Below are positions 1-6,229 of a stretch of DNA of 6,229 nt, one piece after another (position 1 is the first letter of the stretch; each line of letters starts with the position of its first letter). Both the position numbers and the translations under genes were made by a program. This DNA comes from a virus (taxonomy: Duplodnaviria > Heunggongvirae > Uroviricota > Caudoviricetes): positions 1-6,229 of the IMG/VR virus record IMGVR_UViG_2534681999_000014, one strand, 5' to 3'. Below the pieces are notes generated by a model. It was not told the origin of the DNA. It worked only from the letters and a program-made list of their open reading frames with translations, and ran no database searches.

Positions 1-142
1 ATTTTGTGATGCAGTGCCTGGTGCCTCCAGGTGACGTTAACCAGTTAACAATTAACGCCGGATACAGAGAATCCACCCATAACACTGTTTTTGGTTTTAA
101 CTGTTCCGCGTGCGCTTAGCCGCATTCACCGCATCACAAAAT
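1..142. repeat. Perfect 12-bp inverted repeat pair, ATTTTGTGATGC (1-12) and GCATCACAAAAT (131-142), flanking about 118 bp
   Basis: Seen directly: 131-142 is the exact reverse complement of 1-12. The left arm touches the window edge, so it may extend beyond the window. Function unknown. Confidence 0.5.
36..57. repeat. Three GTTAAC-core palindromic motifs at 8-bp spacing (GTTAAC 36-41, GTTAAC 44-49, TTAACG 53-57)
   Basis: Seen directly in ACGTTAACCAGTTAACAATTAACGCC. Regular spacing of a self-complementary hexamer suggests a protein-binding array; this is inference only. Confidence 0.35.
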
Positions 143-232
143 TCACTTTAAAAAGGGCGGCAGAGCAGTCACGGAGTAAAACTGATACCGCCAAATGTCA
201 CCAGAAAATTGATAACAGAGGGCGTTGTAGCG

Positions 233-269
233 GGGTTGTCACTTAAGCGTATGGTCAACCTGACAACCC
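233..269. other. Hairpin: 9-bp perfect inverted repeat GGGTTGTCA / TGACAACCC around a 19-nt loop that contains CTTAAG
   Basis: Seen directly: 233-241 and 261-269 are exact reverse complements. Followed by GGTGCATTTTCTGG, which is moderately T-rich. Could be a terminator of an upstream plus-strand gene or a regulatory structure; not resolved. Confidence 0.3.
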
Positions 270-461
270 GGTGCATTTTCTGGAGCAATGGAGGAAACCC
301 CAGCCATACTTACCGCCGCGCCATTTCGCGGACTGCCACAACCGGAAGCGCACGGTCGACGAAAATTTAACGATAGGCTATCTATGAACCAGCAACCTCG
401 CCGTGTGCTTTCGTGTTGTGTGCCTGCTTTTTACCACGTCAGGCGAGGTGGTCCCCGTTAT

Positions 462-507
462 TCCCCAACAACAAGGATCTTGTTAATCTGGATATCCCCA
501 ACAACAA
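462..507 (+). repeat. 13-bp direct repeat TCCCCAACAACAA x2 (462-474 and 495-507) upstream of the 546-1037 gene; a small palindrome AACAAG-gat-CTTGTT (470-484) with a GATC site lies between the copies
   Basis: Seen directly. Position about 40-85 bp upstream of the probable ATG at 546 suggests promoter or leader regulatory sites; inference. Confidence 0.35.
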
Positions 508-545
508 TAAGAGTATTGAATGTGATCGCTGAATTAACGGCAGCA

Positions 546-1037
546 ATGACGGCTATTCGTGAAACCGCCCAGATTGCAAAACTAATGAACGAGGCAAAAA
601 CTCAAGCTGAAGTAAATGCGGCTATTGGTGAACTGAACTCAAAGCTTGCATCTATTCAGCGCGAATGCGTGTCTCTCGTTGAGCTGGTGGGCACTTATCA
701 AGAAATAAATGCTTCTCTCAAAGCTAAAATTGCAGAATTTGAAAACTTTGAGGCTCAGACGGAAGGTTATATCCTTAGCCAACTTGAGTCGGGAACTTTT
801 GTGTACTCGAAGGAGGTAACCGTGAACGGCGGCAGCATAATCATGCATCTTTGTCCAAAATGTTTTGGACAAAAGATAGTATCGATACTTCAGCCATTCC
901 CGGTTAGAGAATATGAATTTTTTCATAAAAGCAGGTGCCTGTACTGTGAAGATCAGTTTCTTATGAATAAAAATCCGGATTACGTATCACCTCCATCTAT
1001 TGAAGAGTTGGCCAGAAAACTGAACGGCAATCTGTAG
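546..1037 (+). CDS. Hypothetical protein, 163 aa: N-terminal predicted coiled-coil, C-terminal CxxC-X24-CxxC zinc-ribbon-like motif; AT-rich cargo gene convergent with the leftward prophage genes
   Basis: Part of the 288-1037 ORF in the track. The first 86 codons (288-545) are R/P-rich, more GC-rich and not protein-like, so the start is placed at ATG 546 (MTAIRETAQIAKLMNEAK...). In-frame TTG 520 and GTG 526 are alternatives; the SD is weak in all cases. Cys motifs CPKC and CLYC seen in the translation. The body of the gene is visibly more AT-rich than neighbouring genes. No family recognised from memory. Confidence 0.5.
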   Translation: MTAIRETAQIAKLMNEAKTQAEVNAAIGELNSKLASIQRECVSLVELVGTYQEINASLKAKIAEFENFEAQTEGYILSQLESGTFVYSKEVTVNGGSIIMHLCPKCFGQKIVSILQPFPVREYEFFHKSRCLYCEDQFLMNKNPDYVSPPSIEELARKLNGNL

Positions 1038-1151
1038 ATTTTTACTGTTATGGATATCCAGATTGTTAAAGAGCATGCCGGATGCTTGCTTGTGTCCGGC
1101 GCGTGTGCACCACTCTCCCCCCGTGGAGGATTCCTTAATTACCAGATTTCA

Positions 1152-1304
1152 TTAGTCAGAGTTTCTTGCTAACCAGCGACGCGCGCCAGATTCGGTTTTA
1201 AACGTTTTGCTTTTGGTATACGTCATCGCGGTGAACGTGCCGTCCTGGTTGGGAAACACGCCGTACACCAGAGATTCGTTGTTGCCAAGATCGATAGTAT
1301 CCAT
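1152..1304 (-). CDS. Small prophage protein, 50 aa, DUF1391 family (YdaF/YdfA-like)
   Basis: The track ORF 1152-1343 begins with TTG; the internal ATG at 1304 is preceded by GAGG with a 6-nt spacer (GGGAAATGAGGTCAACATG on the minus strand), so the start is placed at 1304. Translation MDTIDLGNNESLVYGVFPNQDGTFTAMTYTKSKTFKTESGARRWLARNSD matches my memory of the small Rac/Qin prophage proteins YdaF/YdfA. Stop TAA at 1154-1152. Confidence 0.6.
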   Translation of the reverse strand: MDTIDLGNNESLVYGVFPNQDGTFTAMTYTKSKTFKTESGARRWLARNSD

Positions 1305-1490
1305 GTTGACCTCATTTCCCCTTAACGCCGGGTAGCGGAACAAAAACCTGCTGCATCGTTATTAAAGTTGAACCCTGCCGTCATGTTCATACGCCTCGGG
1401 CTGGCTACTTACCCCCTGACCACTGCTTGGTAACTCGAAGTATTGCCCGGCGTTCTGTGGGGCGGGGTGGGTGGTTGGTGTATGTAATCT

Positions 1491-1530
1491 ACAATAAAAA
1501 ACTGTTTTTGTGTCAACAGTTTTTAATTGT
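1491..1530. promoter_or_regulatory. OL-like operator: two 15-bp ACA-N9-TGT sites (ACAATAAAAAACTGT 1491-1505; ACAGTTTTTAATTGT 1516-1530) with a TTGACA -35-like hexamer on the minus strand in the spacer (plus coordinates 1511-1516)
   Basis: Seen directly: the first site is identical to the site at 2526-2540 and the second differs by 1 nt from 2550-2564. The location leftward of the repressor operon and upstream of the leftward DUF1391 gene matches the lambda OL/pL position. Confidence 0.6.
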
Positions 1531-1540
1531 TGTTTTGGGC

Positions 1541-1563
1541 AAAAAAATCCCTCGAAAGAGGGA
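1541..1563 (-). terminator. Rho-independent terminator for the minus-strand repressor-antitoxin-toxin operon
   Basis: Minus strand reads TCCCTC-TTTC-GAGGGA followed by TTTTTTT: a perfect 6-bp stem (1548-1553 / 1558-1563) with a 4-nt loop and a 7-U tract (1541-1547), starting 18 nt after the ParE stop codon (1584-1582). Confidence 0.55.
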
Positions 1564-1581
1564 GTATGAAAATTGTTCAAC

Positions 1582-1869
1582 TCAGATAGAGAAGGGAAAT
1601 TGTCGCCGAGAATGTGTCACGCTTACAATCTCAATGCTTGAAGCAGCTACTCTGTACAGGATTATGTAGTTAGGGTGGGTCACGATCTCTCTCAATCCAG
1701 AAACCCGTTCGCTTGGTGGATATAAGTACGGATGCTCAGATAGAGGTAATACCGATGTTTCAATGCGTATTTTTAGTCTACGTGCTGCCGGTGGGTTCTC
1801 CTTGGCGATGTAAGTTATGATCTGGCGCAAATCATCGCGAGCAGACGGTAGCCATAAAATGGGTAACAT
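1582..1869 (-). CDS. parE2: Type II toxin, ParE/RelE superfamily (ParE2-like)
   Basis: 95-aa ORF MLPILWLPSARDDLRQIITYIAKENPPAARRL...YIILYRVAASSIEIVSVTHSRRQ shows the ParE pattern (L.W.P.A..DL..I..YI...NP.AA; Y.I.YRV....IEI..V.H..R). Its ATG (1869-1867) overlaps the upstream antitoxin TAA (1871-1869) by 1 nt, the classic translationally coupled antitoxin-toxin order. The gene symbol is from memory of the E. coli O157 paaR2-paaA2-parE2 system and was not verified by search. Confidence 0.85.
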   Translation of the reverse strand: MLPILWLPSARDDLRQIITYIAKENPPAARRLKIRIETSVLPLSEHPYLYPPSERVSGLREIVTHPNYIILYRVAASSIEIVSVTHSRRQFPFSI

Positions 1870-2060
1870 TACTCGCTCTTGTTAGTTACAGCAATTTGAG
1901 CAATAAGATTTTCCATTTCAGCCATTACCTCGTCATGTGGAATTGCGGGGCGAGTGTCTGCAAGGCTTGACGTTACTTTAGTGCGCAACCATTCGTTGTA
2001 ACTGTTTTCTTGTTCGGTAGTTTCGAATTCTGAAACTATCGGAGAAAGGGCTGTACCCAT
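1869..2060 (-). CDS. paaA2: Antitoxin of the ParE toxin, 63 aa, PaaA2-like
   Basis: ORF MGTALSPIVSEFETTEQENSYNEWLRTKVTSSLADTRPAIPHDEVMAEMENLIAQIAVTNKSE lies immediately upstream of and overlaps the ParE gene. SD AGGAG sits 7 nt upstream of the ATG (2060-2058). Size and the motifs SPxVSEFET...ENSYNEWLR.KV..SLAD.RPAIPHDEV match what I recall of PaaA2; recalled, not searched. Confidence 0.75.
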   Translation of the reverse strand: MGTALSPIVSEFETTEQENSYNEWLRTKVTSSLADTRPAIPHDEVMAEMENLIAQIAVTNKSE

Positions 2061-2087
2061 GGCATAACTCCTCTTCTTGTACTGTGG

Positions 2088-2489
2088 TCACGCCCGGCGG
2101 CTTTTTTGTGCCGCCAGCCACCTAGCAATGGTTTCTTCCATTGATTTTTTCTTGTCTTTGATTTCTTGAAGCATTTTTTCTTGGTCTTCCTCAGGAAACG
2201 CACTAAAAGCTTGGAGCAGTTCGCGTTGGCGAGGACCAATTTTCATCGTGTCAGGGGTGAAAATTTGCTCACACTCTTCAGGAGGCAATAAAAACCAATG
2301 CAATGGATGCCCTGAAACCTCAACCAGTTTATCCAAACTTGAGGCTTTAGGTGTAGCCTTACCGCTGACCCATTGTTGAACAGTTTGTTGTGTCACACCA
2401 ATTCTACGGGCAAGCTCAGCCTGGCTCCATCCAGTTTCCTGAAGAAGCTTGCTGATTCTGTACATAGATACTTCTAGGGCGCTCATCAT
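2088..2489 (-). CDS. paaR2: HTH XRE-family transcriptional repressor: CI-like lysogeny repressor (RacR/DicA-like architecture) and probable third component (PaaR2-like) of the toxin-antitoxin operon
   Basis: 133-aa ORF with an N-terminal helix-turn-helix (SQAELARRIGVTQQTVQQWVSG) and a C-terminal region (ELLQAFSAFPEEDQEKMLQEIKDK) resembling the DicA-type C-terminus. Divergent from the Cro-like gene across a multi-site operator; 27 nt upstream of the antitoxin on the same strand. No SD upstream of ATG 2489, so the mRNA may be leaderless; an alternative start is M9 at 2465. Confidence 0.8.
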   Translation of the reverse strand: MMSALEVSMYRISKLLQETGWSQAELARRIGVTQQTVQQWVSGKATPKASSLDKLVEVSGHPLHWFLLPPEECEQIFTPDTMKIGPRQRELLQAFSAFPEEDQEKMLQEIKDKKKSMEETIARWLAAQKSRRA

Positions 2490-2500
2490 TATTCAATTTT

Positions 2501-2564
2501 ACAGGTAAATACTGTTAAAAGCATCACAATAAAAAACTGTTGATTGCATACAGTTTTTTATTGT
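2501..2564. promoter_or_regulatory. OR-like tripartite operator: 15-bp ACA-N9-TGT sites at 2501-2515 (ACAGGTAAATACTGT, weakest), 2526-2540 (ACAATAAAAAACTGT) and 2550-2564 (ACAGTTTTTTATTGT), centres 24-25 bp apart; divergent promoters embedded
   Basis: Seen directly: 2526-2540 and 2550-2564 are perfect reverse complements of each other. A -35-like TTGATT (2540-2545) lies in the spacer between them on the plus strand, and TATAGT (2575-2580) is a strong -10 candidate upstream of the ydaS-like SD GAGGAGG (2587-2593). On the minus strand, TAAAAT (plus 2496-2501) lies 6 nt from the repressor ATG. Confidence 0.65.
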
Positions 2565-2597
2565 AGGCTTTGCTTATAGTTTTTAGAGGAGGGCAAA

Positions 2598-2870
2598 ATG
2601 CTAGATAGCACTCGCGAAAAAATTAGGCAGAAATACACTCAGGCTGAAATAGGTCGTTATATGGGGGTCGCTCAACAGACTGTTTGGCAATGGTTTAGCT
2701 TTGGCGTTCCCCCAAAGCAGGTAATTCCGTTATGCCAACTAATGAAGTGGGAAGTTACCCCGCATGAAATCCGCCCAGATATTTATCCTAACCCAACCGA
2801 CGGTTTACCTGTTGGATGTAAGGTTAACACATCAAATGCGCCGGAGTTGATTCATGAAAATCAAGCATGA
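2598..2870 (+). CDS. ydaS: Cro-like small DNA-binding protein, YdaS family
   Basis: 90-aa ORF with strong SD GAGGAGG 4 nt upstream. HTH region AEIGRYMGVAQQTVWQWF followed by VIPLCQLMKWEVTPHEIRPDIYP resembles E. coli Rac YdaS as I recall it (…PAIERATRGEVLCEELRPDIDW). Divergent from the repressor. Confidence 0.75.
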   Translation: MLDSTREKIRQKYTQAEIGRYMGVAQQTVWQWFSFGVPPKQVIPLCQLMKWEVTPHEIRPDIYPNPTDGLPVGCKVNTSNAPELIHENQA

Positions 2871-3279
2871 ACACATCCGCATGGCGATGAATGCCTGGGC
2901 GCATCCGGACGGCGAAAAAGTACCGGCTGCGAAAATTACCAAAGCGTATTTCGAGCTGGGAATGACGTTCCCGGAACTGTATGACGACAGCCATCCGGAA
3001 GCCATGGCTCGCAATACTCAGAAAATTTTCCGCTGGGTGGAGAAAGACACTCCTGATGCGGTTAAAAAAATTCAGGCGTTGTTACCAGCGATCGAAAAAG
3101 CGATGCCGCCTCCGCTGGTGGCCCGAATGCGCAGCCACAGTTCCGCTTATTTTCGGGAGTTGGTAGAGACGAAGGAACGGCTGGTGAAAGATATTGATGA
3201 TTTCGTTGCATCAGCGATCGTTCTGTTCGATCAGATGAATCGTGGTGGCCCGGCAGGAAACACTCTGGCTGTGCATTAA
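2854..3279 (+). CDS. ydaT: YdaT-family protein (CII-like functional analog)
   Basis: 141-aa ORF starting MKIKHEHI and ending ...VH, with a central KIQALLPAI segment; these match the start, end and central motif of E. coli YdaT as I recall it. SD GGAG 7 nt upstream of the ATG. The start overlaps the ydaS-like 3' end by 17 nt. Confidence 0.75.
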   Translation: MKIKHEHIRMAMNAWAHPDGEKVPAAKITKAYFELGMTFPELYDDSHPEAMARNTQKIFRWVEKDTPDAVKKIQALLPAIEKAMPPPLVARMRSHSSAYFRELVETKERLVKDIDDFVASAIVLFDQMNRGGPAGNTLAVH

Positions 3280-3292
3280 TTGGGTAATAAAT

Positions 3293-3802
3293 ATGAGTAA
3301 TGACAAAAAATTGACACTGAGCGTTTACGAAAACAGTCCGCACATCTGGCGTGGCGGTTTATCTGATGTGGAGCTGGCAGAGTGGTTGATACATAAAGCT
3401 AATGCGCTGCTCTGGCGTTTGTCAGCCAGAGAACAGCGCAAGGAAACCAGAATAAAGCTGGCTGATGCAGAAGCGTGTGCCGGGCTTATTGAGGATTATA
3501 CAAATCTTGGTATTTCTTCAGCAGAGAGTGATCCCATTCAGCCTCTGAGCAGGGAGTCAATCCAGCACGCTGGTTGTATGGCACATCTTGTAACTGCTCG
3601 TCAACATGAGGTGGGTATTGGATCACTTCCGGCGGGATATTCGCTGATTCCAGAGCTGGTTGAAGCAAGAAAATCAGTTCAGAAAAAGAGAGATGACGCA
3701 CTTCAATTATTGAGAGAGCACTATGGCGCGATACCAGAATGCGAACAGCGTCGATACCCTGAAGGTTATGAATGGATGCAGTCTCTTTTTGAAGTTCGCT
3801 AA
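3293..3802 (+). CDS. Hypothetical protein, 169 aa, unknown function, inserted between the ydaT-like and replication genes
   Basis: Track ORF 3242-3802. The first ATG is at 3293 (MSNDKKLTLSVYENSPHIWRGG...), 14 nt after the ydaT-like stop; the region 3242-3292 overlaps the ydaT-like 3' end in another frame. Same orientation as the early-right operon. SD weak. No family recognised. Confidence 0.5.
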   Translation: MSNDKKLTLSVYENSPHIWRGGLSDVELAEWLIHKANALLWRLSAREQRKETRIKLADAEACAGLIEDYTNLGISSAESDPIQPLSRESIQHAGCMAHLVTARQHEVGIGSLPAGYSLIPELVEARKSVQKKRDDALQLLREHYGAIPECEQRRYPEGYEWMQSLFEVR

Positions 3803-4019
3803 TCAATATGTCGAGACGAAGGTATGTTTCGGCGCGCAGCCAGGCTCTGTAATCCGGGAGCATTTCGGGGCTGTTACACCAGCGGTTTGTTGCTGCAACA
3901 TTTAATACATGAGCCTGATAAAGGCTTTTCAAAAAATACATGTCGAACCTCCTCTGGTTCTGTCGATTGGGAACCACAGATTATATCCGGAGGAAGGTTC
4001 GGCACCAGATGAGGTAGCC

Positions 4020-5111
4020 ATGCGTGATTACGCAAAAGTTTCTCCGCGATTCTGGCTGGGAGAAACGGGGAGAGAACTTAGAAAGGCGGGTGCAGAAGCG
4101 CAAGTTGTTGCTTTTTACCTGATGACATCCCCTCACGCAAATATGCTGGGTTTGTATTACCTGCCAGTTTTATACCTTGCTCATGAAACCGGGCTTGGTC
4201 TGGAAGGGGCTTCAAAGGGGCTTAAAAGGGCTGTTGAAGCTGGTTTTTGTAGCTATGACCATGATGCAGAGATGGTCTGGGTCCATGAAATGGCAGCCTG
4301 GCAGGTTGGGGAAACGTTGAAGCCTGGCGATAACCGTTGTGCAGGTGTCAGGAATGAGTATGCATCATTACCTGAAAACGCTTTTCTGTCAGTGTTTTAC
4401 GACAGATATAAAACGGATTTCCATCTGGATGTGAGGCGGAATAATAGCCGAAATTCGGTAAGGGGCTTCGAAGGGGCTTTTAAGGGGCTTCGAAGCCAAG
4501 AACAGGAACAGGAGCAGGAGAAAGAACAGGAACAGGACAAAAACACTATGGTTCATGGCAAAAAAAACACCACGAACCAGGCAGGGGATGTTCAGACCGT
4601 CAATCCTGGTCAGCCAGCAGGCACGACACCGGAAGCCGATTCGGGCGCTGTGCAGCAGGTGATGACCGCAGGGTCGGAGCAATCACACCAACTGCAGCAG
4701 CCTGAAGCCGATTCCGCCATTCAGCGGGAAGCCGATCGGGTAGTCCCGGAAAGCACCGGGCAGTCTGTGGGACGAGTGGATTATCCGGATGTGTTCGAAC
4801 AGGTCTGGCGGGAATACCCGTTGCGTGCTGGGGCAAACCCGAAGAAATCCGCTTTCAGTGCCTGGAAGGCCAGATTGCGCGAGGGGGTGCCACCAGAGAC
4901 CATGCTGGATGGTGTGAGGCGTTACGCGAGATACCTGGCGGCGACCGGGAAAGCGGGAACGGAATTTGTTCAGCGAGCGACGACGTTTTTTGGGCCGGAC
5001 CGGAATTTTGAAAACCCCTGGTTGCTCCCGGTAAGCGGCACGAACAACCAGCGTTGTGTGAATCATATTTCTGAACCGGATACCGAAATTCCGCCGGGAT
5101 TCAGGGGGTGA
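4020..5111 (+). CDS. Phage replication initiation protein (lambda O-like / YdaU-position), with an internal Gln/Glu-rich linker and a conserved phage C-terminal domain
   Basis: Track ORF 3909-5111. The ATG at 4020 has SD GAGG 5 nt upstream, while ATG 3909 has none, so the start is placed at 4020 (MRDYAKVSPRFWLGETGRELRKAG...). The C-terminal segment DVFEQVWREYPLRAGANPKKSAFSAWKARL...ATTFFGPDRNFENPW resembles the conserved C-terminal domain of phage replication proteins (from memory). Position immediately upstream of the DnaC-like gene. Contains DNA iterons (see repeat features). Confidence 0.7.
   Translation: MRDYAKVSPRFWLGETGRELRKAGAEAQVVAFYLMTSPHANMLGLYYLPVLYLAHETGLGLEGASKGLKRAVEAGFCSYDHDAEMVWVHEMAAWQVGETLKPGDNRCAGVRNEYASLPENAFLSVFYDRYKTDFHLDVRRNNSRNSVRGFEGAFKGLRSQEQEQEQEKEQEQDKNTMVHGKKNTTNQAGDVQTVNPGQPAGTTPEADSGAVQQVMTAGSEQSHQLQQPEADSAIQREADRVVPESTGQSVGRVDYPDVFEQVWREYPLRAGANPKKSAFSAWKARLREGVPPETMLDGVRRYARYLAATGKAGTEFVQRATTFFGPDRNFENPWLLPVSGTNNQRCVNHISEPDTEIPPGFRG
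4204..4233. repeat. Iteron cluster A: AAGGGGCTT at 4204-4212 and 4215-4223 plus a degenerate copy (AAAGGGCTG, 4225-4233), 11-bp period
   Basis: Seen directly in GAAGGGGCTTCAAAGGGGCTTAAAAGGGCTG. Copies are read in three different reading frames (EGA / KGL / KRA), arguing for DNA-level rather than protein-level selection. Confidence 0.45.
4460..4490. repeat. Iteron cluster B: three perfect AAGGGGCTT copies at 4460-4468, 4471-4479 and 4482-4490 (exact 11-bp period), with palindromic CTTCGAAG cores; candidate replication origin inside the initiator gene
   Basis: Seen directly in TAAGGGGCTTCGAAGGGGCTTTTAAGGGGCTTCGAAGCC. The three copies are translated in three frames (RGF / EGA / KGL). Immediately followed by the linker-coding repeat and an A-rich stretch (4539-4570). 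Lambda ori is likewise a set of iterons inside the O gene. Confidence 0.5.
4500..4541 (+). repeat. In-frame hexamer array (GARCAG)n encoding the QEQEQEQEKEQEQD low-complexity linker
   Basis: Seen directly: GAACAG x2, GAGCAG, GAGAAA, GAACAG x2, GACAAA. The period is a multiple of 3 and is read in one frame, so this is a protein-level flexible acidic linker between the N- and C-terminal domains. Confidence 0.6.
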
Positions 5112-5117
5112 TGTGGC

Positions 5118-5864
5118 ATGAAAAACATTGCGGCAGCCGGGGTTCTTGAACGTATTCGCAGACTTGCACCACAGGCGTCGGTTCCACCGTACCGGACGGT
5201 GGAGGAGTGGCGGGAATGGCAACTTGCTGAAGGACGAAAACGCAGCGAGGAGATTAACCGCCAGAATCACCAGTTGCGGGTGGAAAAAATCCTGAATCGT
5301 TCGGGCATCCAGCCTCTGCACAGCAAATGCTCGTTTGCGAATTATCAGGTGCAGAACGACGGGCAAAAATACGCGCTGAGCCAGGCCAAATCCATAGCTG
5401 ACGAACTGATGACCGGGTGCACGAATTTTGTGTTCAGCGGTAAAACCGGCACCGGGAAAAATCACCTTGCAGCGGCGATGGGTAACCGGCTGATGGCGAA
5501 GGGGCGCAGCGTGATTATCGTCACCGTGTCTGATGTCATGAGCGTGTTGCATGACAGCTACGACAACGGCAAATCCGGGGAAAAATTTTTACAGGAGCTT
5601 TGCAGTGTTGATTTGCTGGTCCTGGATGAAATAGGCGTTCAGCGGGAGACGAAAAACGAGCAGGTGGTATTACACCAGATAATTGATCGCCGGACAGCAT
5701 CACTGTGCAGTGTCGGGATGTTAACAAACCTGAATCATGCCGCAATGAGTACACTTCTTGGTGAGAGGATTATGGACCGCATGACCATGAACGGTGGTCG
5801 ATGGGTGACGTTTAACTGGGATAGCTGGCGTCCAAATGTCAGCAATATGAGGGTTGTGAAGTAA
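5118..5864 (+). CDS. DnaC-like helicase loader, AAA+ ATPase of the DnaC/IstB family (lambda P functional analog, YdaV-position)
   Basis: 248-aa ORF with Walker A FSGKTGTGKNHLAAAMG and Walker B DLLVLDEIG. Start ATG 5118 follows the initiator stop (5109-5111) by 6 nt, with a G-rich SD (5103-5108). Confidence 0.9.
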   Translation: MKNIAAAGVLERIRRLAPQASVPPYRTVEEWREWQLAEGRKRSEEINRQNHQLRVEKILNRSGIQPLHSKCSFANYQVQNDGQKYALSQAKSIADELMTGCTNFVFSGKTGTGKNHLAAAMGNRLMAKGRSVIIVTVSDVMSVLHDSYDNGKSGEKFLQELCSVDLLVLDEIGVQRETKNEQVVLHQIIDRRTASLCSVGMLTNLNHAAMSTLLGERIMDRMTMNGGRWVTFNWDSWRPNVSNMRVVK

Positions 5865-5885
5865 TTTTGTCCGGAGGAAATTTTA

Positions 5886-6229
5886 ATGGAAACCGTATCT
5901 GACGCACTGAAAGCACTGAAAAAAGCCTCTTCACATGTGGTGGCAGCTCGCCTTGGAATCAGTCGTGAAGAGGCTGTCAACGAGCTGTGGGAACTCAAAA
6001 TAAATGGCGTCGTTGATAAAACTGGTCACACCTGGTTTCTGGCTGGCGAAGGTGAATCCCGGGTAACCGAAGAGCGGCCAGTAAAATCTGAAGCACAGGA
6101 TATGCTGACCGGGGAGGTCGAACAAAAAGTTACCGCAGACATGATGATTGAGTTTATCGGTCAGGATGGGGCTAAAACGTGTGAGGAACTGGCGGGTAAG
6201 TTCGGTGTCAGTACTCGCAAGGTTGCTTC
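5886..6229 (+). CDS. Partial CDS (5' end, runs off the window): hypothetical prophage protein with an N-terminal winged-helix-like segment, possibly YdaW/DUF1627-like
   Basis: Not in the supplied track because it has no stop inside the window. I translated it by hand from ATG 5886 (METVSDALKALKKASSHVVAARLGISREEAVNELWELKINGVVDKTGHTWFLAGEGE...) and found no stop codon through 6229. SD GGAGG (5873-5877) 8 nt upstream. Family assignment is a weak recollection. Confidence 0.6.
   Translation, partial: METVSDALKALKKASSHVVAARLGISREEAVNELWELKINGVVDKTGHTWFLAGEGESRVTEERPVKSEAQDMLTGEVEQKVTADMMIEFIGQDGAKTCEELAGKFGVSTRKVA

Follow-up and report, generated by a model that had tools for sequence, protein, structure and literature searches.

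What occupies the gap between the two divergent regulatory genes of this prophage, and which proteins read it? The window analysed here is a stretch of 6,229 nucleotides of a Caudoviricetes virus (positions 1 to 6,229 of IMG/VR record IMGVR_UViG_2534681999_000014), and it is a lambdoid prophage immunity region. We find it very probable, from the sequence comparisons described below, that its segment 2501-2564 represents the right operator OR3-OR2-OR1 of the immunity switch of a lambdoid prophage in Shiga-toxigenic E. coli. The Pfam families recognised in the window are PaaA2, ParE_toxin, YdaS_toxin and YdaT_toxin. The genes that matter for the switch, with a 108-bp gap between the divergent repressor and cro-like genes, are the following:

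1152-1343, minus strand: ydfA-like gene (DUF1391)
1582-1869, minus strand: parE (Pfam ParE_toxin)
1869-2060, minus strand: paaA (Pfam PaaA2), product 70% identical to PaaA2
2088-2489, minus strand: repressor of 133 aa, composed of an N-terminal 434/XRE-type HTH (helix TQQTVQQW), then a disordered linker and a pair of C-terminal helices
2598-2870, plus strand: YdaS-family Cro-equivalent of 90 aa, recognition helix AQQTVWQW
2847-2864, no strand assigned: perfect YdaT operator TTGATTCATGAAAATCAA at the ydaS/ydaT junction, spanning the ydaT ATG
2854-3279, plus strand: ydaT, the CII-equivalent gene (Pfam YdaT_toxin)

The paaA and parE genes (1582-2060) form a toxin-antitoxin pair and share a transcript with the repressor. 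To the right of ydaT, the plus strand carries O-like and DnaC-like replication genes. The segment 2847-2864 matches perfectly the YdaT operator motif OM, TTGATT-N6-AATCAA, that was experimentally defined in CP-933P (PMC9986795). The TTGATT at 2540 was considered as a YdaT site and rejected, being a half-site only; the full YdaT palindrome is the one at 2847-2864.

Searched over the whole window, the pattern ACANNNNNNNNNTGT matches three times in the gap:

2501-2515, no strand assigned: OR3-equivalent ACAGGTAAATACTGT, nearest the repressor gene, with a non-consensus outer half-site, ACAGG
2526-2540, no strand assigned: OR2-equivalent ACAATAAAAAACTGT, the central site, identified by the pattern search, the inverted repeat and conservation
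2550-2564, no strand assigned: OR1-equivalent ACAGTTTTTTATTGT, within the spacer of the putative PR

All three ACA-N9-TGT 15-mers that the initial annotation had read in this gap are thereby recovered. The site centres lie at 2508, 2533 and 2557, which gives spacings of 25 and 24 bp, as it had estimated; on the scale of the helix, the three related pseudo-palindromes are about 2 to 2.5 turns apart. A repeat search identifies 2526-2540 and 2550-2564 as a 15-nt inverted repeat with 100% complementary arms and a 9-nt gap, in agreement with its description of the two strong sites as perfect reverse complements. It had also called the third site weaker; this holds solely in the sense that 2501-2515 has one mismatch to ACARTNNNNNAYTGT. 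That site ends 11 nt from the repressor ATG (2489), at an offset of 12 nt. The gap contains no fourth site at up to 2 mismatches, and no match to ACA-N8-TGT. A candidate fourth site taken from the direct repeat D2 (2570-2584) was rejected: it gives no match at up to 2 mismatches and is not conserved.

The whole window holds six matches to ACA-N9-TGT against 1.5 expected, and five of the six fall in two regulatory gaps. Three matches within the 108-bp intergenic region arose in 2 of 200,000 dinucleotide shuffles; three matches within 64 bp arose in none of 5,000 shuffles of the whole window.

Homologues of the repressor, 42-80% identical, occur in Salmonella, Klebsiella/Raoultella, Pluralibacter, Morganella, other E. 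coli, Arsenophonus and metagenomes. Seventy homologues were found, and twelve loci were retrieved; a scan of genome contigs gave Arsenophonus alone, and the others were reached by protein search and contig look-ups. The recognition helix QQT(V/I)QQW is kept in seven independent loci whose intergenic DNA has diverged, with a mean column identity of 69%. Loci L002, L004, L006 and L012 each carry three ACA-N9-TGT sites, at offsets of 12, 37 and 60/61 from the repressor ATG. Counting degenerate sites, the three-site layout at common offsets recurs in five of six relatives (Salmonella, Klebsiella, Pluralibacter, Morganella, Arsenophonus and a metagenome). Morganella (ACC…) and Arsenophonus (AAA…) have one degenerate site each; L009 keeps OR3 at offset 12 but in a degenerate form (ACC…), and the Arsenophonus locus, L001, combines another spacing with a degenerate OR2 (AAA…). 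A non-consensus outer half-site (ACAGG, ACAGA or ACCGA) is found at the OR3 position in six of the seven related loci. Relatives differ in site-to-site spacing (23-26 bp), a variation that any cooperativity between the sites has to accommodate.

The invariant columns of the alignment correspond approximately to the ACA and TGT triplets together with the adjoining -10-like bases; site centres and spacers have changed. Among 34 sites, A1, T13, G14 and T15 are present in 34/34, and C2 and A3 in 33/34. The consensus further includes R4, (T/G)5, A11 and Y12, and its central five bases are 96% A/T. An E. coli variant (L015), 86% identical over 231 bp, has 0/45 substitutions inside the sites versus 17/63 outside (p = 3.7e-5). 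Relatives do not keep the mirror symmetry of the two arms, whose central nine bases agree there at no more than 3-8 of 9 positions. The perfect reverse complementarity of the two strong sites is not, in itself, the feature that matters functionally.

We then consider the proteins. The best PDB sequence match of the repressor DNA-binding domain is the 434 repressor (phmmer E = 3.2e-5 against 2r63/1per). TQQTVQQW aligns to TQQSIEQL, such that Q28, Q29 and Q33 of 434 correspond to Q34, Q35 and Q39 here. In the 434 co-crystal structures (PDB 2OR1, 1PER), it is Gln28, Gln29 and Gln33 that read the ACAA half-site. The AF2 model of the repressor (pLDDT 83) has a five-helix XRE domain, a disordered linker (approximately residues 70-85) and two C-terminal helices; compared with the 434 DNA-binding domain (1pra), it gives a TM of 0.78 and an rmsd of 1.9 Å. 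One extra residue follows helix 3 of the repressor relative to that of 434, and any link between this residue and the 1-bp-longer sites is speculation. Cro proteins of the group all start their recognition helix with QQ(T/S/V/N)V, the Cro of the window having QQTV; YdaS of CP-933P, whose operators differ, has SPSYLSQ in place of the QQ motif.

Relatives with Q39R or Q39K have other operator sequences at the matching positions: ACAC-N7-GTGT in L011, and TAACTTTAWAAGTGT in both OR and OL of L007. This suggests that residue 39 (Gln33 in 434) may help to set immunity specificity. Residue 39 and base 4 correlate cleanly in L011 alone, and L010 (R39) has no clear base-4 preference; a simple residue 39-base 4 rule, holding in the former and failing in the latter, was accordingly kept as a lead only. 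The heteroimmune relatives with helix QQSVQKW or QQTVQRW are seen at 2385-2500 and 3440-3500 of L007/L008, and at 1285-1391 of L011. Judged from the helices and half-sites, the recognition chemistry resembles that of phage 434 more than that of lambda. The lambda likeness claimed initially thus stands for the three-site layout and its spacing, and gives way to 434 for recognition.

Could the three sites be mere chance matches in an A/T-rich promoter region, with no operator function? The pattern is loose enough for one or two matches to be expected in the window. Nevertheless, this reading is effectively refuted by the shuffles (2/200,000), by the recurrence of the same offsets in related loci and by the substitutions that avoid the sites; the module is also duplicated at OL, as described below. 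A hairpin is a very improbable alternative too. Here the inverted repeat 2526-2564 would act as a nucleic-acid structure, either a DNA cruciform or, within a transcript reading through from PRE for example, an RNA stem-loop or terminator, instead of as two protein sites. Its fully complementary arms with a 9-nt loop would suit such a structure, and a leftward PRE-type transcript, as described for CP-933P, would cross it. Arm complementarity is lost in relatives, however, while the ACA and TGT ends of each 15-mer are invariant, and on this ground we reject the hairpin. The third site and the distal pair share the same ends, nothing resembling a terminator was scored, and the stem consists almost wholly of A/T and is not followed by a T-run; the repeat also lies upstream of both putative start sites.

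It is also conceivable that the sites are real but read mainly by the Cro-like YdaS or by one regulator, the repressor binding to other sequences of the gap, such as the four sites or direct repeats proposed for CP-933P. The Cro protein does carry a QQTV helix, and the direct repeats D1 and D2 are present in the window. Yet the repressor helix TQQTVQQ is nearer to that of the 434 repressor than the Cro helix is, and where the repressor helix varies, the site sequence changes with it; relatives do not keep D1 and D2, and the fourth site is missing at up to 2 mismatches. We regard this division of roles as unlikely, although less so than the hairpin. A tripartite OR-like operator, as originally proposed, is well supported by comparison: the conserved offsets, the site-sparing substitutions, the 434-type helices of both regulators, suited to ACA half-sites, and a conserved -35 position all point to it.

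The promoter elements that we assign around this operator are placed as follows:

2496-2501, minus strand: putative PRM -10, TAAAAT, starting on the last T of OR3 and followed by 6 nt and the ATG at 2489
2540-2545, plus strand: putative PR -35, TTGATT, starting on the last T of OR2; TTGAyn is conserved in the OR of 5 relatives
2564-2569, plus strand: putative PR -10, TAGGCT, starting on the last T of OR1, with an 18-bp spacer

The -35-like TTGATT reported earlier between the two strong sites is therefore present and fits the conserved -35 position, with the precision that it overlaps the last T of the middle site, 2526-2540. TAGGCT matches the consensus at 3 of 6 positions. In most relatives, OR1 is followed by a hexamer of the TAnnnT type (TAGTCT, TACTCT, TAGTAT, TAATAT and TAGCCT; TAGTCC of L012 ends in C), and the positions T76, G77, T78 and A79 of alignment A2 are invariant. 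In relatives, conserved -35-like and -10-like hexamers abut the sites. The OR3-equivalent shares one base with the putative PRM -10 and sits in the PRM spacer. The centre of the OR2-equivalent is 44 bp from the repressor ATG, the presumed transcription start, and approximately 43 bp from the presumed start of PR, which is predicted near 2576.

PRM has no recognisable -35 hexamer, which fits an activator-dependent promoter. No Shine-Dalgarno sequence precedes the repressor ATG at 2489, and this is the geometry of a leaderless mRNA. The same succession of a -10-like hexamer, 6 nt and ATG is seen in eight of the ten loci, and the remaining two have 7 or 8 nt instead. In CP-933P it reads GATAAT, 6 nt, ATG, and there 5' RACE together with N-terminal sequencing proved the paaR2 mRNA leaderless. 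The called repressor starts of some homologues appear to be 6-9 nt too far downstream (L010, 2495-2500; L007, 2492-2500); in both loci an in-frame ATG follows the -10-like hexamer at a distance of exactly 6 nt, in keeping with leaderless translation. A consensus scan flagged no sigma-70 promoter in 2300-2800, and PL and TTGATT were likewise unflagged; the assignments of PR, PL and PRM are therefore inferred from conservation.

The pattern search of the window revealed a second ACA-N9-TGT pair, absent from the initial annotation, at 1491-1505 and 1516-1530. Its surroundings comprise:

1486-1491, minus strand: putative PL -10, TAGATT, assigned by conservation in relatives
1491-1505, no strand assigned: OL1-equivalent ACAATAAAAAACTGT, with minus-strand reading ACAGTTTTTTATTGT, identical to 2526-2540 and inside the PL spacer
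1511-1516, minus strand: putative PL -35, a perfect TTGACA, of which TTGAC is conserved in 7 loci
1516-1530, no strand assigned: OL2-equivalent ACAGTTTTTAATTGT, the distal site, immediately upstream of the PL -35 and differing from 2550-2564 by one mismatch
1541-1563, minus strand: intrinsic terminator of the repressor-paaA-parE operon (TCCCTCTTTCGAGGGA then T7), directly upstream of the OL sites

The segment 1491-1530 nearly duplicates the OR2, -35, OR1, -10 module, and six related loci retain it; its PL-proximal site, read on the minus strand, has the same letters as the OR1-equivalent. In the window and in six related loci, a distal pair of this kind, with a spacing of 23-25 bp, follows the repressor operon on its downstream side, 0.5-1.6 kb away, and TTGAC(A) stands between the OL sites in 7 loci. 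The distal region of L012 shows one site before the contig ends. The putative PL spacer of 19 bp is outside the range of the promoter scan, and the PL start is predicted near 1479 on the minus strand. The pair looks like the OL/PL equivalent, approximately 1 kb from OR and composed here of two sites only, and the operator would then be one half of a two-part system.

After the putative PL -10 comes a C/A-rich, G-poor leader, ACCAACCACCCACCCCGCCC (about 1455-1480 of the window, minus strand; 3482-3510 in L014). Eight related loci and CP-933P keep this leader despite their differing operators, and it may represent a nut-like, Rho-utilisation or 5'-UTR element. In the mosaic, the border between immunity types coincides with the operators. 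Further along, a DicF antisense RNA gene is located at 155-206 on the minus strand (Rfam RF00039, 77 bits). This is the strand of the putative PL transcript, and therefore the repressor may also control the DicF division-inhibitor operon.

How might such a switch operate? Each 15-bp site is a pseudo-palindrome composed of ACA(R)(T/G), five A/T bases and A(Y)TGT. It would be bound by a dimer of the repressor (2088-2489) and also by the YdaS-type Cro (2598-2870). Both proteins would read it through a 434-type helix, QQ(T/S)(V/I)xxW, whose two glutamines would contact the invariant ACA in the manner of Gln28 and Gln29 of the 434 repressor. OR1 would lie within the spacer of PR, and OR3 within that of a weak, leaderless PRM whose +1 is the A of the ATG at 2489. 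OR2 would be placed just upstream of both -35 regions, at about -43/-44 from each start. In the lysogen, the repressor would occupy OR1, OR2 and OL1/OL2 (1491-1530), shutting PR, with cro, ydaT and the replication genes, and PL, with the ydfA-like gene, DicF and further genes. From OR2 it would probably stimulate PRM; at high concentration, it would fill the deviant OR3 and throttle PRM. Cro would use the same sites in a different order of preference.

Pairwise cooperativity, and an OR-OL loop of about 1 kb with four dimers on OR1, OR2, OL1 and OL2, probably depend on the C-terminal helical domain of the repressor; the presence of exactly two OL sites fits this count. We searched the 133-aa repressor for a Peptidase_S24/LexA-type or lambda-CI C-terminal domain and obtained no hit, and the model shows two helices there. 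We base cooperativity and autoregulation on the homology of this domain to that of PaaR2 (42% identity over 98 aa, E = 2e-20). By EMSA, footprints and reporters, PaaR2 was shown to bind OR and OL; it forms octamers in solution, and it activates PRM at low dose and represses it at high dose (PMC8630535). By homology, pairwise cooperativity and an OR-OL loop are plausible.

A more specific version of this scheme is possible, and we propose it tentatively. The repressor would be a domain swap, in which a 434-type helix reading ACA half-sites set 1 bp further apart (15 bp, odd centre) is placed on a PaaR2-type octamerising domain. With three OR and two OL sites, four dimers, or one octamer, would close the loop of about 1 kb, and OR3 would act alone. 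The ParE module, the lytic genes and the DicF operon would come under one bistable switch, with residue 39 setting heteroimmunity.

The closest parallel for recognition is phage 434 (PDB 2OR1, 1PER, 1RPE). The N-terminal fold of the repressor is the same, the recognition-helix glutamines are conserved, and the repressor and Cro of 434 share the QQ motif as they do here. Its operators also begin with ACA(A/G), end with TGT and have an uncontacted A/T-rich centre, and three OR sites stand between the divergent genes. OR2 of 434 is centred at -43.5 from the annotated PRM start, compared with about -44 from the repressor start here. In both cases the deviant half-site is the one nearest the repressor gene (ACAG in 434 OR3, ACAGG here). 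The differences are equally clear. The operator of the 434 family is a 14-mer, ACAA-N6-TTGT, and the six operators annotated in the 434 record OL657226.1 are all ACA-N8-TGT, against 15 bp here; the 434 sites fit no N9 and the present ones no N8, so the dimer geometry of 434 cannot be transferred directly. The 434 repressor has a LexA-like S24 C-terminal domain, absent from the repressor studied here. Phage 434 has three OL sites instead of two, and a cI gene with an annotated RBS instead of an apparently leaderless mRNA. Here, OR1 is in the PR spacer and not over the start site.

For protein architecture and locus organisation, the reference is the CP-933P switch of E. coli O157:H7, with PaaR2, YdaS and YdaT and the promoters PRM933P, PR933P and PL933P (Jurenas et al. 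2021, PMC8630535; Prolic-Kalinsek et al. 2023, PMC9986795). It has the same gene order: parE, paaA, repressor, then divergent ydaS and ydaT. PaaA is 70% identical, the C-terminal domain of the repressor is homologous, the YdaT OM motif is identical, and the leaderless arrangement of -10, 6 nt and ATG is shared. A distal OL/PL is again found downstream of parE, followed by the homologous CCAACCCACCCCGCCCC leader. In contrast, the DNA-binding part of the repressor does not align, and BLASTP gives no alignment between the Cro of the window and that of CP-933P. The CP-933P operators are 18-bp repeats with half-site GTTTAGTAA, for which four IRs and three ORs were proposed (PMC8630535). The gap sequence differs, with three 15-bp ACA-N9-TGT sites here in place of the GTTTAGTAA repeats. 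Identity with the published CP-933P operators was thus discarded as an explanation: the repressor N-terminus, Cro and the repeats all differ. The window element and CP-933P are heteroimmune, and both are present in EDL933.

Lambda has a comparable layout: divergent cI-like and cro-like genes flank three sites spaced about 23-25 bp centre-to-centre, PRM is weak and leaderless, OL is distant, and a CII-equivalent and O/P-like replication genes lie on the right. Lambda sites are 17 bp long and different in sequence. The S24 autocleavage/cooperativity domain of CI is absent from the present repressor, and lambda has three OL sites where we find two. Altogether, the layout is like that of lambda and 434 OR, the recognition chemistry is like that of 434, and the protein architecture and locus organisation are like those of CP-933P. 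The mismatches to these systems concern operator length with respect to 434, DNA-binding specificity with respect to CP-933P and the C-terminal domain with respect to lambda. The element is a heteroimmune sibling of a characterised switch, of an ordinary kind, and reveals no new principle.

The module is carried essentially unchanged by many E. coli genomes: a 231-bp stretch across the gap is found in 510 of 5,426 complete genomes, with at least 99% identity in 439 of them. They include O157:H7 EDL933 (at 1.2553 Mb) and O26 and O103 Shiga-toxigenic strains. In EDL933, paaR2-paaA2-parE2 of CP-933P lies at another place, and a homologue of the CP-933P system was stated by Jurenas et al. to be located on CP-933M (PMC8630535). 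The locus of the window is therefore most probably paaR1-paaA1-parE1 of CP-933M, its repressor then being PaaR1. At more than 60% identity, the repressor is absent from all phage genomes of the phage collection that we searched. None of the three 15-mers was found in the literature searched, where sites of this immunity type were not found described either.

The switch would govern the ParE toxin-antitoxin pair together with the replication genes of the prophage, and probably also the DicF operon. Knowledge of its operator would make it possible to test repression, prophage stability and cross-immunity with the co-resident CP-933P. The switch also provides a compact natural comparison with the textbook case of 434: the same reading head, with a different half-site spacing and a different oligomerisation domain. 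As a minor observation, RefSeq annotates an ECs1072-family phage-associated gene in O157 genomes on the minus strand at 3486-3977, between ydaT and the O-like gene; in the window, this annotation overlaps a 186-aa ORF of the plus strand.
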